The notes beneath the pieces are model-generated. The model did not search any database and had not been told where the DNA came from. It worked only from the letters and a program-made list of their open reading frames with translations. The position numbers and the translations under genes were made by a program. From positions 1,415-65,414 of the forward strand of contig PDZT01000002.1 of NCBI GenBank assembly GCA_002753105.1: a DNA stretch of 64,000 nucleotides, in the 5' to 3' direction. Positions 28,568-32,678 of the stretch are shown here, in pieces; positions within the stretch are counted from its first letter, which is position 1; every line of letters starts with the position of its first letter. Source of the DNA: Deltaproteobacteria bacterium YD0425bin50. Its GTDB lineage: Bacteria > Desulfobacterota > Desulfobacteria > Desulfobacterales > YD0425bin50.

Positions 28568-28713
28568 GGAATGGCAATTTTATAACTTACTTTTTTGTCT
28601 TGAACTGTGATTTATTTGATTCATGTGATCGCTATGATTATCATAGTTAATCACACAAATCAGACGAATCACAGTTCAAGACAATACGGAAATTTATTTA
28701 ATGTCCATCCCTA
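28568..28713. repeat. 146-bp hairpin element, copy A (GTCTTGAAC family)
   Basis: The reverse complement matches 32533-32678 at 144/146 positions by hand alignment. Internally it is an imperfect palindrome with ~45-nt arms ending in TTGTCTTGAACTGTGATT / AATCACAGTTCAAGACAA. Confidence 0.85.
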
Positions 28714-28789
28714 AGCAATTCAAATTGTTTTTGAATTTTGCTTTTCGATAAGTTAAAGGCTGCTGCCATAAATCTAATCCAACTATTAA

Positions 28790-29671
28790 TTAATTACAGG
28801 GAACAAATATCGTTACAACATTATAGATTAAAATATGTGCATACCATCCTGCCCATCTGGCTATACTTGTTGCACACAAAAAACCACTACAAGAGTACCA
28901 ACTTGAATTAGGCCATGACCAACTTGTAGGCCAACAAGGAGGCTGACTATCTGATGGATCAGGCCAGTATGGCTGCCACCACCAAACATCTGGTGGGTCA
29001 GGATTGGGAGTAGTATCTATAGGGGCTAGGGTACTAGTAGTAGTTGTTGTCGTGGTGGTTGTAGTAGTGGTAGTGGTAGTTGTTGTTGTCGTGGTGGTTG
29101 TAGTAGTGGTAGTTGTTGTTGTCGTGGTGGTTGTAGTAGTGGTAGTTGTTGTTGTCGTTGTCGTTGTCGTTGTGGTAGTGGTAGTGGTAGTTGTTGTTGT
29201 TGTTGTCGTCGTTGTGGTAGTGGTAGTGGTAGTTGTAGTTGTTGTTGTTGTCGTTGTGGTTGTAGTTGTACTGGGTATAGTTGTCGTAGTTGTCGTTGTC
29301 GTTATATTACTAAACTCTCGAATTGCCTCAAACGTACCATCAGGATTAACAATGCCTTTGATTTCATAGTTAGTTCCAACTTTTTTAACTTTAAAAGAAC
29401 CTTGAGATTCATTTAAAGTGTATGTATATTCAACTTCATCTTCATCTGGAACATTTAAAACTTCAGATTCAACCAACCGCCTCGCCGAATCAGCTAAATA
29501 TTGAGCACGAACAATACTGATAGAATTAATCTGATTATATGAACTGGTTGTGATCAAAGAGAGTGTTACTGCACCTAATACAGATACAATAACAAAAGAG
29601 ATGATCAAACCAATCAGGATTGCTCCAGAAGAATTGTGGATGTTTTGATATTGTATATGATGAGTTTTCAT
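28790..29671 (-). CDS. PilX-like minor pilin with 78-residue poly-Thr tract and Trp/Cys-rich C-terminal domain
   Basis: The track ORF is 28790-29692. The ATG at 29669-29671 overlaps the upstream pilin stop (TAATG), which favours MKTHHIQ as the start. SGAILIGLIISFVIVSVLGAVTLSLITTS...IVRAQYLADSA resembles the PilX_N hydrophobic helix. Then T8-IPS-T78, followed by 81 aa with 10 Trp and 4 Cys. Confidence 0.7.
   Translation of the reverse strand: MKTHHIQYQNIHNSSGAILIGLIISFVIVSVLGAVTLSLITTSSYNQINSISIVRAQYLADSARRLVESEVLNVPDEDEVEYTYTLNESQGSFKVKKVGTNYEIKGIVNPDGTFEAIREFSNITTTTTTTTIPSTTTTTTTTTTTTTTTTTTTTTTTTTTTTTTTTTTTTTTTTTTTTTTTTTTTTTTTTTTTTTTTTTTTTTTTTTTTTTTSTLAPIDTTPNPDPPDVWWWQPYWPDPSDSQPPCWPTSWSWPNSSWYSCSGFLCATSIARWAGWYAHILIYNVVTIFVPCN
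29036..29302 (-). repeat. ACN-codon (Thr) low-complexity tract with internal exact tandem duplications
   Basis: Codons 131-219 of the track ORF are 86 Thr plus IPS. An exact 33-bp tandem duplication lies at 29079-29111 / 29112-29144 (GTTGTTGTTGTCGTGGTGGTTGTAGTAGTGGTA on the plus strand). A 27-nt word CGTTGTGGTAGTGGTAGTGGTAGTTGT occurs twice (about 29167 and 29208). Confidence 0.9.
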
Positions 29672-30204
29672 TATTTTCGTATCCATACACATTTTTCAAA
29701 AGATGGCTGTACAAATCCATCCGCTAATGTGAATTCGATATTAATGAGACTTGTTGATGCGCTAGGTTCATCTGAACCTGTATCTGTAAAACGGTTATAA
29801 TACGTCAATGTAAATGCAGATACCCTATCCGCCAATGTATTACAATCAGCAGATGTAGCGGGATTTCCATCTGAATCAAGCATTAGTTTTTTTTGCCCGC
29901 TATCATAATAGACTCGATGGGCAGCGGCATGATCACGAAACGTATAAGTTATGTCATTAGATGTACCCATCGAAATATTAGTTATGCCAGAAAATTCTTT
30001 AGCAATCCTTGTCATCGCAAACTGACCTATTTGGGTTAATTCAGTCGCCGTGCGTGTTAAGACAAATCCCTGCACTAACTGAATGATCATTGTGCTGCCA
30101 ACCATTCCAATTATTCCTACCAGCACTAATGAGCAGATCAGTTCAACGAGGGTAAAGCCTGATTTTTGGTAACCTTGATTTTCTGAAATGTTATTTAGCA
30201 TCAA
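29671..30204 (-). CDS. prepilin-type N-terminal cleavage/methylation domain protein (PilW-position minor pilin)
   Basis: 177 aa. QKSGFTLVELICSLVLVGIIGMV is a class III signal (G|FTLxE) followed by a hydrophobic helix. Confidence 0.8.
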   Translation of the reverse strand: MMLNNISENQGYQKSGFTLVELICSLVLVGIIGMVGSTMIIQLVQGFVLTRTATELTQIGQFAMTRIAKEFSGITNISMGTSNDITYTFRDHAAAHRVYYDSGQKKLMLDSDGNPATSADCNTLADRVSAFTLTYYNRFTDTGSDEPSASTSLINIEFTLADGFVQPSFEKCVWIRK

Positions 30205-30242
30205 TATATCAATATGTTATTTATATTTAATAACCATCTAAA

Positions 30243-30662
30243 TTAATTTGAAGAACTGAAAAGCGCCGTCAAAGAACCGCAGTTTTCTGAGCGTATAGTA
30301 ATTTTTAAAATCTCATTTCCACCACCTACCTGTTCATTTCCACCACCTTCCGGAAAATCAATAAAATCATTAAAAATAATTTGATAACTACCGTAGTAGT
30401 CTGGAGTCGCAACCTGTGATTTTAAGAATTCTAAAACATCAACTCCCGGCGTTGGGTTACTTACCATATATTCATAATCACTGGAAATATTCTCCATAGC
30501 GCTTTGCAGTTCAAAACATTCTTGCAGTCTTTGTATTGGCACACTGCTATCCATGAAAGAGTCAGATAAAAAAGTATATACCATAACAGTTAAAATGCTA
30601 GCAACCGTAATCGTTATAATTATTTCAAGCAGTGTAAAACCGTATGTTTTTATCCGTATCAT
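30243..30662 (-). CDS. prepilin-type N-terminal cleavage/methylation domain protein (PilV-position minor pilin)
   Basis: 139 aa. KTYGFTLLEIIITITVASILTVMV is a class III signal peptide. Confidence 0.8.
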   Translation of the reverse strand: MIRIKTYGFTLLEIIITITVASILTVMVYTFLSDSFMDSSVPIQRLQECFELQSAMENISSDYEYMVSNPTPGVDVLEFLKSQVATPDYYGSYQIIFNDFIDFPEGGGNEQVGGGNEILKITIRSENCGSLTALFSSSN

Positions 30663-30667
30663 TATAA

Positions 30668-31548: not shown

Positions 31549-32010
31549 TCAAGATACCTGAAAAAGCTGCAAGGTGACTTCGCCGATTAGCATATCATCA
31601 CTATAGCTTGTTCCGGCAACCTCACGAAATTTTTCATATTTAAAGTGCGTTTCAGTGCGTGTAATTATTGTCTGATGAAGCGAGATTTTATCTATAAAAA
31701 AACTAGCATTTTTTATACCTACAATCCATCCTTCTTTTTTGGAATCGAATCCAAACGTGCGGATTCGATCCAGACCATTACTTACTCCTGCAGTTTGTGC
31801 CACAAGTTCTATAACAATTAAGGAAAGAGTAGAATTAGAATCTGAATCAAAAAATGGCCAAGCCGTATTCACAACAGACTGGGTTATAGCCATTTCTTCA
31901 GTAACTGAAATAATTCGTTCGATGAGTTTCATACCATTTCGGTGAGGAATAAGGTCTTCAATGTTTAGGTCTTGAACGTTTATTTCATGATTCTGCATAT
32001 TCAAACTCAT
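31549..32010 (-). CDS. FabA/FabZ-like hot-dog fold 3-hydroxyacyl-ACP dehydratase family protein
   Basis: LIPHRNGMKLIERII (the H of the dehydratase motif) and VIELVAQTAGV. The track ORF extends to 32082, but that N-terminal extension (MVQDKGGQNEEHAS...) is encoded by the hairpin repeat. Start at MSLNMQ (32010) or MQNHE (31998) is more likely. Confidence 0.6.
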   Translation of the reverse strand: MSLNMQNHEINVQDLNIEDLIPHRNGMKLIERIISVTEEMAITQSVVNTAWPFFDSDSNSTLSLIVIELVAQTAGVSNGLDRIRTFGFDSKKEGWIVGIKNASFFIDKISLHQTIITRTETHFKYEKFREVAGTSYSDDMLIGEVTLQLFQVS

Positions 32011-32054
32011 TACATTTTTTTTAAACAGACTGATAGATTTGGATGCGTGTTCTT

Positions 32055-32169
32055 CGTTTTGGCCGCCTTTGTCTTGAACCATGATTTATAGATTATTTTG
32101 ATTTTTCAGAAATATAATCATGAAATCCTATAATCAAGCGAATCAAGTTTCAAGACAATGGGCGAAACC
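32055..32169. repeat. hairpin element, diverged member of the GTCYTGAAC family
   Basis: Left arm CGTTTTGGCCGCCTTTGTCTTGAACCATGATTT and right arm AATCAAGTTTCAAGACAATGGGCGAAACC. The left flank is nearly the same word as in the 31215 element. Confidence 0.7.
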
Positions 32170-32184
32170 ATAATTTGGGTGTAG

Positions 32185-32409
32185 TTAAAAATCTACGGAT
32201 TCAACGGTCTTTACTTCTGGAATAGATTCCCTGATAGTCCGTTCAATACCATTTTTTAGTGTCATCCGAGACATCGGGCAGCCAGAACATGCTCCTTTTA
32301 AACGCACTTTAAGCACACCAGCTTTATAATCCACATACTCTACATCGCCACCATCTGCCTGAAGATAGGGTCTGATTTTATTAAGCTCTGCTTGAATTTT
32401 TTGAATCAT
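32185..32409 (-). CDS. NifU C-terminal domain / Nfu-type Fe-S cluster scaffold protein
   Basis: IRPYLQADGGDVEYVD...LKGACSGCPMSRMTLKNGIERTI (CxxC). The ATG at 32407-32409 has AAGGAG 7 nt upstream. The track's TTG start at 32433 is probably too long. Confidence 0.85.
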   Translation of the reverse strand: MIQKIQAELNKIRPYLQADGGDVEYVDYKAGVLKVRLKGACSGCPMSRMTLKNGIERTIRESIPEVKTVESVDF

Positions 32410-32532
32410 TTTATTCTCCTTATAAATATTCAACAGTGTTATTCACATTGACATAACATTTATATCTTATTATAGATTTTTGATCAAGCAGATATATATT
32501 TTTTTGATTACAAGAAAAAAACCATTGATACA

Positions 32533-32678
32533 TAGGGATGGAAATTAAATAAATTTCCGTATTGTCTTGAACTGTGATTCGTCTGATTTGTGTGATTAAC
32601 TATGATAATCATAGCGATCACATGAATCAAATAAATCAAAGTTCAAGACAAAAAAGTAAGTTATAAAATTGCCATTCC
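32533..32678. repeat. 146-bp hairpin element, copy B (inverted relative to copy A)
   Basis: 144/146 identical to the reverse complement of 28568-28713. The two differences are A/C at the 11th base and A/C in AATCA[A/C]AGTTC. Confidence 0.85.

Follow-up and report, generated by a model that had tools for sequence, protein, structure and literature searches.

Two inverted copies of a composite palindrome

We analyzed a 64-kb stretch of DNA (64,000 nt, hereafter the window) from Deltaproteobacteria bacterium YD0425bin50 (assembly GCA_002753105.1, contig PDZT01000002.1, positions 1,415 to 65,414), in which two near-identical palindromic elements in inverted orientation, copies A and B, enclose a minor-pilin operon, a gene for an ApeP-family dehydratase and a gene for an Nfu/NifU-like protein. 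A repeat search delimited the inverted arms as 28563-28713 and 32533-32683, which are 151 nt long, 98% complementary and 3819 nt apart. Copy A and the reverse complement of copy B are identical at 148/151 positions, with mismatches at 28567, 28607 and 28703. The first of these positions lies within a flanking 3-nt direct repeat, and the elements proper (A, 28568..28711, plus strand; B, 32535..32678, minus strand) comprise 144 nt each and are two substitutions apart (98.6% identity). The direct repeats differ between the copies: A is flanked by TAA/TAA (28565-28567 and 28712-28714), whereas the repeats at B (32532-32534 and 32679-32681) read ATA/ATA on the plus strand, which is TAT/TAT on B's own strand. 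In a BLASTN search of the window with copy A, the only full-length matches were A itself and copy B (E=8e-72), in addition to self-complementary matches of both. The homology stops at the element ends and the flanks diverge at once in this alignment; as there is no homology past the 144 nt, an origin of A and B by inverted segmental duplication is not seen. Copy A is located at the 3' end of a remnant of a radical-SAM gene, and copy B between the divergent starts of nfu (minus strand) and an alpha/beta hydrolase gene (plus strand).

Each copy forms an imperfect palindrome with 63-nt arms, which are 76% complementary overall and contain an inner near-perfect stem of ~35-40 bp. The calculated RNA fold of copy A has a free energy of -59.6 or -61.8 kcal/mol on the two strands (z about -10.9 and -10.4 in comparison to shuffled sequences), and that of copy B -52.6 kcal/mol. 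The terminal inverted repeats of the 144-nt element, GGAATGGCAATTTTATAA and GGGATGGACATTAAATAA, match at 14/18 positions. The element has no open reading frame (ORF) of its own. Both copies are composite, with a conserved core of ~90 nt (28595..28684 on the plus strand in A, 32562..32651 on the minus strand in B) that has 9-nt-periodic TGATT/AATCA arms and lies inside unique outer arms, GGAATGGCAATTTTATAACTTACTTTT and ATACGGAAATTTATTTAATGTCCATCCC. The internal motif TTGTCTTGAAC...GTTCAAGACAA has 13 matches with at most one mismatch in the window, versus 1.85 expected.

The outer arms were met only in A and B, and neither their pattern nor that of the core was present in viral contigs. A distant BLASTN search of a plasmid collection with the full 151-nt element gave no match, and the composite 151-nt element was not among the listed matches of exact-pattern scans of public genome and metagenome contigs. 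The original prediction had described inverted 146-bp hairpin elements differing at two of 146 positions. The palindromic inverted pair was found as described, and the same two substitutions fall within the 144-nt elements proper; the element is, however, not one homogeneous unit but a ~90-nt core in outer arms.

The insertion site of copy A

The radical-SAM remnant at copy A (28436..28746, plus strand) was recognized by tblastn and by nucleotide alignment with locus L148; it comprises the C-terminal ~55 codons of the gene and is interrupted by A. L148 represents the closest available relative, with a protein identity of 69% for the ortholog of the upstream PTPS-related gene and a local DNA identity of about 80%. 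Window positions 28536-28562 and 28713-28746 align to adjacent L148 DNA from the radical-SAM 3' end, and between these aligned flanks there are 150 nt in the window versus 3 nt in L148. Removing the 144-nt element together with one TAA gives a length equal to that of L148, and this collinearity identifies A as a simple insertion. Since the two flanks of A formed one continuous sequence ancestrally, the present orientation is also the orientation in which A was inserted. A adjoins the TAA that ends the current, frame-shifted frame of the remnant, ~13 codons before the position of the ancestral stop in the intact L148 gene.

The gene upstream of A (25412-28432) encodes a PTPS-related membrane protein, whose close homologs have ~1290-1315 aa and a C-terminal TPR region. 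A radical-SAM gene follows the PTPS-related gene in the two closest contexts that we examined (L148 and L150). Of the PTPS-related protein, the window retains residues 5-990 and lacks the ~300-aa C-terminal TPR region that is present in most of the closest homologs; of the radical-SAM gene that comes next, no more than the last ~55 codons are left. Loss of both the TPR tail and the radical-SAM body indicates a deletion of ~2.2 kb that fused the two remnants (25412-28583), both of which are probably pseudogenes.

A hairpin family that crosses phyla

When public genomes and metagenomes were scanned for the pattern, the part of A and B that recurred elsewhere was the inner ~90 nt alone, from TTGTCTTGAAC to GTTCAAGACAA. 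We treat these hairpins as a family, for which a covariance model, R1, was built from 41 hairpins of other genomes only and used to search the window with filters off. R1 found exactly four significant cores, A with 81.1 bits (E=2e-13), B with 81.3 bits (E=2e-13) and two further members, C with 65.3 bits and D with 57.2 bits (E from 2e-13 to 1e-8 for the four), whereas the next-best match in the window had E~0.2. All four cores fall within 28.6-32.7 kb, and the remaining 60 kb is free of them. By R1 score, A and B rank near the top among ~70 hairpins found in 100 metagenome loci, and both match the family termini TTGTCTTGAAC and GTTCAAGACAA exactly.

The termini and arm motifs are invariant or at least 90% conserved in the alignment of the 41 units, whereas the loop is variable. 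Each arm contains three to four motifs at a spacing of about 9 nt, TGATT in the 5' arm and AATCA in the 3' arm. The stem shows covariation; columns 12/123, for instance, pair as U-A in 23 of the sequences and as C-G in another 11. Among the listed matches, the hosts belong to at least four other phyla, namely Armatimonadota, Bacteroidota, Patescibacteria and Cyanobacteriota. They include several metagenome-assembled genomes (MAGs) of Chthonomonadaceae, with as many as six copies having exact termini in a single genome among these matches, the isolates Spirosoma oryzae and Botryobacter ruber, a Flavihumibacter MAG, MAGs of Patescibacteria, Parcubacteria and Cyanobacteriota, and many JGI metagenome contigs. 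The flanks of the family units are mutually unrelated across these genomes, and no target duplication was seen around the core in other genomes. Many ~99-nt copies with exact termini were observed in loci of Chthonomonadaceae (Armatimonadota; L001, L002, L008, L009, L012, L014, L017, L018, L020, L022-L025 and L027), where a common G+C-rich loop consensus (…GAGGAGGCGCG…) defines a lineage-specific subfamily. In two of them, L002 and L012, the palindrome runs 8-13 nt into the flanks, similar to the outer arms in the window.

None of 57 family units in the fetched loci lies inside an ORF. Where ORFs were called on both sides (n=40), 25 units are located between tandem, 12 between convergent and three between divergent genes. 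Measured from the stop codon upstream, most units begin between -8 and +30 nt, and for several of them this stop is the TGA within TTGTCTTGAAC. A, C and D follow this habit in lying after stop codons, whereas B in its divergent region is exceptional. An intergenic stretch of one metagenome contig (L126:400-1238) contains at least seven TTGTCTGAAC-type hairpins or half-hairpins back to back, which indicates that the family is able to accumulate locally, as it did on a smaller scale in the window.

No member of the family was detected in eight loci of relatives (107 kb). The window gave no Rfam match at the gathering threshold, and a permissive Rfam scan returned only generic long-hairpin matches to miRNA precursors (mostly from plants, also from animals) far below threshold. 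Literature searches with the terminal sequences yielded only irrelevant papers, and the core family was not retrieved via its termini or its associated protein. Pairs of termini 0.3-5 kb apart in the fetched loci were considered as candidates for an autonomous parent element and rejected: those in L092 and L038 belong to separate elements with ordinary genes between them, and an apparent array in L077 is in fact a tandem gene duplication carrying a half-arm.

Further palindromes between copies A and B

Copy C (32069..32158) is an older, degraded member of the core family (R1 E=3e-10; fold -33.7 kcal/mol) located 27 nt past the stop codon of nfu. It sits in a different outer palindrome, TCTTCGTTTTGGCC.. 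/ ..GGGCGAAAC, that extends over roughly 32050-32172. Copy D (31207..31354, core 31227-31330) is a divergent member (R1 E=1e-8) with the core termini TTGTCCTGAAC and GTTCAGACAA and a fold of -65.7 kcal/mol (z -11.3), located ~195 nt past the apeP stop codon and 48 nt upstream of the pilin operon's first gene. Its outer palindrome, TTCGTTTCGGCC / GGCCGAAACGA, is of the type found in C, and the C-D alignment gives TTCGTTTYGGCC / GGSCGAAAC as common to both. The gap that contains D also harbors an unrelated palindromic repeat, element E (31387..31453), with the sequence GTCATTCCCACGAAAGTGGGAATCCAG ... CTGGATTCCCGCTTTCGCGGAATGAC and a fold of -40.7 kcal/mol (z -9.7). Palindromic repeats thereby fill all intergenic gaps around the pilin operon, apeP and nfu.

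Element E can be described as GTCATTCC-C/G-stem-GGAATC, and similar repeats accompany TTGTCTTGAAC hairpins in unrelated metagenome contigs (L126:170-300 and L127:~860-900). Repeats of this type yield spurious ORFs, for example 31319-31495. The longest ORF of the dehydratase likewise begins at an ATG within hairpin C (window 31999-32082; MVQDK..., corresponding to ATGGTTCAAGACAAA), while the database protein of 149 aa starts 28 codons later and the upstream ATG is spurious. Hairpins of this family can thus create false N-terminal extensions and supply stop codons (the TGA in TTGTCTTGAAC) in other genomes as well, and R1 could be used to annotate the element in genomes where spurious starts or ORF extensions arise, as at apeP. 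Outside of the 4-kb segment, AATC-periodic arm remnants without conserved termini were observed in intergenic positions at 49215-49265 and 46702-46794 (R1 E~0.2 and ~6); these are possibly decayed members of the hairpin family.

A recurrent neighbor gene of the hairpin family

The sole recurrent neighbor gene family of the TTGTCTTGAAC hairpins encodes a GxxExxY PD-(D/E)XK protein of ~127 aa (PF13366, E=3e-40; TIGR04256, E=4e-42). Copies in 15-16 of the fetched loci are 70-80% identical (L010, L030, L038, L039, L050, L069, L104, L112, L121, L125, L128, L133, L136, L140 and L141; e.g. L039:4880-5419). The gene has a constant orientation relative to the asymmetry of the hairpin, and its stop codon abuts or overlaps a 3' arm. 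In L039, L125 and L140, a 5' arm directly precedes the gene, which therefore lies between the 5' and 3' arms of a hairpin, and in ten loci a complete, ORF-less hairpin and ~30 nt precede it, with an additional 3' arm on the far side of the gene. By tblastn, the GxxExxY gene is present in 16 fetched loci and was not detected in the window, and most family members elsewhere lack it as well, so that it is a facultative feature. A comparison of L093 with L038, L141 and L050 as a putative filled/empty pair for the GxxExxY gene was discarded because the loci are insufficiently orthologous. No solved structure related to GxxExxY by sequence was found. GxxExxY/PDDEXK_3 is listed as a family of unknown function with multiple transfers (PMC3424549).

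Enclosed and neighboring genes

All genes enclosed by A and B are on the minus strand and are the only minus-strand genes in a 36-kb run of plus-strand genes. The four-gene minor-pilin operon (28790..31159, minus strand) was identified by Pfam N_methyl and NCBIfam matches and by the same layout in L153-L155, loci of Desulfobacterota relatives. Its genes, all on the minus strand, encode a GspH/MshC-like protein of 163 aa (30668-31159), prepilins of 139 aa (30243-30662) and 177 aa (29671-30204) and, in last position, a poly-Thr protein of 300 aa (28790-29692). The three prepilin-type genes match PF07963, while the 300-aa protein has no Pfam domain match. Its poly-Thr tract (29030-29302) has 87 Thr in 91 residues, encoded by 34 ACA, 23 ACT, 18 ACC and 12 ACG codons; this mixture of codons indicates a compositionally selected linker and not a pure, slippage-prone repeat. 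In relatives, the fourth gene of the operon is far larger (521-791 aa), with a Calx-beta domain in two Desulfobacteraceae loci (L153/L154).

The dehydratase gene (31549..31998, minus strand, 149 aa) encodes an ApeP-family hotdog protein; PF22817 was found on all homologs, whereas the match to FabZ is weak. The nfu gene (32185..32433, minus strand; PF01106, E=2e-30) encodes an Nfu/NifU-like Fe-S scaffold protein of 82 aa from a TTG start or 74 aa from the ATG at 32409. The best homologs are found in Desulfobacterota (Desulfococcaceae HSG8 and Desulfobacterales MAGs), and protein clusters of the window proteins contain no relative with at least 90% identity. In relatives, the pilin layout (GspH/MshC-like protein, ~140 aa, ~177 aa, larger protein) occurs in three loci without nfu or apeP. 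The apeP gene stands beside a ketoreductase gene in L151 and L152, in L151 also beside acyl carrier protein and ketosynthase genes, and beside neither nfu nor pilin genes, whereas it is isolated in the window. Since the modules between A and B are non-syntenic in relatives, the segment is not one cassette but a 4-kb lineage-specific patchwork in a region that was also hit by a deletion. The original prediction correctly named an Nfu-like gene, three prepilin genes and a poly-Thr gene, while its FabZ-like gene is of the ApeP type. Its single pilin cassette resolves into unrelated modules (pilin operon, apeP and nfu), and hairpins C and D inside the segment had been missed.

Domain scans covered window ORFs of at least 150 aa, other than the 792-aa Lon-like ORF and the ORFs of 3299 and 1873 aa, and two shorter genes of the cassette. 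No recombinase, integrase or transposase domain was detected in the ORFs scanned, in agreement with the earlier statement that such genes are lacking. Scans for promoter and terminator consensus sequences gave no excess over chance in the window and none was informative. Elsewhere in the window, the type IV pilus assembly genes pilMNOPQ (421-6288) lie ~22 kb upstream of the operon for the minor pilins, two paralogous Lon proteases are encoded at 13294-15762 and 33605-35983, and a large minus-strand hybrid non-ribosomal peptide synthetase/polyketide synthase cluster occupies 36194-63972, with a G+C content of ~42% compared to ~35%.

Discussion

We consider it probable, with a likelihood of roughly 0.7, that A and B are two recent and independent insertions of one 144-nt non-autonomous composite palindrome, similar to a MITE (miniature inverted-repeat transposable element) mobilized in trans, and not parts of a programmed pilin switch. 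Each insertion would have duplicated 3 nt of its target, TAA for A and TAT for B. Lineage-specific outer inverted repeats enclose the ~90-nt core of the cross-phylum hairpin family, of which C and D, nested in another outer palindrome within the same 4 kb, are two older members. The mobilizing enzyme is presumably encoded elsewhere in the genome. At present, the effects of the hairpins are probably passive and may consist mainly of strong stem-loops in transcripts that cross them, which would be 3'-end- or attenuator-like for A, C and D and located in a divergent 5' region for B; A and B may also serve as substrates for occasional homologous recombination.

The features of MITEs that we observed are small size, absence of coding sequence, terminal inverted repeats and target duplications for each copy. 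The divergence of 1.4% between A and B, compared to ~80% nucleotide identity of the neighboring DNA between window and L148, indicates recent spread and supports the original prediction in taking near-identity as a sign of recent transposition. Two MITE insertions, which had been offered there as a fallback, now constitute the favored explanation because each copy has its own 3-nt repeats and the A site is empty in L148. Synteny in relatives had also been proposed there as a check: the A site is empty and contiguous in L148, and the enclosed modules are non-syntenic in relatives.

Several observations weigh against this interpretation. The multi-copy status amounts to two near-identical copies and two diverged cores within 64 kb, and no transposase with matching ends was found in the scanned window ORFs, in plasmids (searched with the 151 nt) or in viral contigs (searched with the outer arms). 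The target duplications are only 3 nt long and the empty-site comparison covers A only. B lies between divergent starts, which is a rare context for the family (3/40 elsewhere), and a regulatory effect of B is conceivable. Furthermore, plain random insertion is by itself insufficient to account for four members in 4 kb when the remaining 60 kb has none. This clustering is partly explained because the rest of the window is mostly long coding sequence, and the remainder may stem from a tendency to insert into palindromes already present, or next to them.

Inverted repeats around a segment with genes for a surface structure such as pilin are reminiscent of invertible switches like fimS, hin/gin, Bacteroides invertons and shufflons. 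A RecA- or recombinase-dependent crossover between A and B would flip the 3.8-kb segment and might cause phase variation of the pilin, apeP and nfu genes. The 144 bp of inverted sequence with 98.6% identity exceed the minimal length for homologous recombination, and the enclosed genes, being the only ones on the minus strand in their surroundings, look as if they had been flipped. However, both flanks of A are ancestral neighbors in L148, and the matching 3-nt repeats of each copy are intact, whereas a single A x B inversion would bring the inner flank of A next to B and mix TAA and TAT. The unmixed repeats and ancestral A flanks imply that the minus-strand orientation was either there before A and B or came about in some other way. 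In addition, complete genes together with ~100 nt upstream of nfu are enclosed, so that a flip need not alter expression. Known invertible switches use repeats of about 10-30 bp and a dedicated tyrosine or serine recombinase encoded nearby, and they invert a promoter or alternative gene ends, in contrast to the present locus, where the scanned ORFs contain no recombinase, the repeats are copies of a mobile element with their own duplications and the A flank shows no net inversion. A flip of the pilin cassette by A x B recombination, as put forward in the original prediction, is physically possible but has no positive support, with no net inversion since the arrival of A, and we regard an invertible cassette as unlikely. 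Still less probable is a composite transposon that had A and B as its ends and brought in the pilin/apeP/nfu segment as one piece. MITE pairs that mobilize intervening DNA are known elsewhere, and inverted identical elements around a gene patchwork that is non-syntenic with relatives would fit such an origin, but the outer flanks (TAA left of A, ATA right of B) are unmatched, each copy has its own duplication and the inner flank of A is the ancestral radical-SAM continuation instead of cargo. The single outer target duplication that defines a composite transposon is therefore missing, and the candidate was rejected.

A function at the RNA level concerns the retention of the hairpins and is compatible with their arrival by insertion. 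Domesticated hairpins might act as terminators, attenuators, processing sites or stabilizers and shield the pilin operon against transcription running on from nfu/apeP and against the convergent operon upstream. What points in this direction is position and stability: the folds are very stable, the family is biased toward sites just past stop codons and against divergent promoter regions, and A, C and D occupy 3'-end or inter-cistronic positions. On the other hand, a scan for the terminator consensus had no hit in the elements and did not exceed the number of sites expected by chance, no U-tract follows the stems and B lies in a divergent 5' region. The positional bias could equally result from purifying selection that removes insertions from genes and promoters, or from target preference, so that a selected terminator or insulator role seems rather doubtful. 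Like the attC sites of integrons, the hairpins are imperfect palindromes of similar length (90-145 nt) that separate single genes or small operons, and the core has AAC...GTT at its inner termini, which raised the question of an integron-like array in which they would be recombination sites between gene cassettes. However, the CTTGAAC / GTTCAAG at the ends of the core deviates from RYYYAAC / GTTRRRY, no intI-type tyrosine recombinase is encoded in the scanned ORFs, A and B are oppositely oriented, and elsewhere the hairpins are dispersed singly after ordinary genes. With the core-site consensus, the integrase and a uniform orientation all missing, the attC explanation is essentially refuted.

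At the level of the locus, the interpretation as MITE-like insertions is deflationary: the pilin genes are part of no demonstrable flip-flop switch, and the repeats were inserted recently into a part of this Desulfobacterota genome that is rearranged and decaying. The A/B pair itself is an ordinary MITE-like case, and the core family is the interesting part. The association with GxxExxY genes provides a testable lead. As a tentative proposal, the ~90-nt core might be an undescribed selfish hairpin that spreads across phyla with the GxxExxY PD-(D/E)XK protein as its nuclease, either borne in the loop or homing into the 3' arm. ORF-less copies, including the four in the window, would then be mobilized or targeted miniature forms, and the nesting in palindromes and the positions after stop codons would reflect recognition of hairpin or cruciform targets. 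If this were true, GxxExxY proteins would cut or mobilize these hairpins, which offers a concrete hypothesis for a widespread nuclease family that has no assigned function.

Comparison with known repeat classes places the elements closest to MITEs, with some resemblance to other hairpin repeats. The ORF-bearing intervening sequences of 23S rRNA and other small selfish ORFs bounded by hairpins form a long stem with a loop that can carry a small ORF, and the GxxExxY gene between the 5' and 3' arms in L039, L125 and L140 may resemble them in this respect. The window copies, by contrast, carry no ORF, and no family flank that we inspected resembled rRNA genes, although no explicit rRNA search of the loci was made. 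With REP/BIME elements and their RAYT proteins, the family shares the location of extragenic palindromes at gene 3' ends or between convergent genes, occasional clustering (as in L126) and possible roles in mRNA stability or termination. REPs have a length of 20-40 nt and a high GC content, begin with a tetranucleotide of the GTAG type and are associated with a Y1 HUH transposase. The hairpins described here, on the other hand, are AT-rich, have 90-145 nt and other termini, and are associated with a GxxExxY gene (TIGR04256 / PF13366), so that affiliation to REP/RAYT was rejected on the defining features. Bacterial MITEs such as Correia/NEMIS of Neisseria, ERIC/IRU of enterobacteria, RUP of Streptococcus and Nezha of cyanobacteria are similar to the window element in their small size and lack of coding capacity, in having inverted repeats at their ends and a short, TA-containing target duplication, and also in their near-identical intergenic copies, long hairpins and possible co-transcription with neighboring genes. 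In contrast to these, the conserved part of the window element is an internal 90-nt core with cross-phylum termini and 9-nt-periodic TGATT arms, this core occurs without target duplication in other genomes, and the recurrent neighbor of the family is a PD-(D/E)XK nuclease and not a DDE transposase. Of the catalogued prokaryotic MITEs, 97.4% are reported to be genus-specific (PMC11602168). Measured against this figure, the occurrence of one core family across phyla sets the hairpins apart from the MITEs catalogued there.

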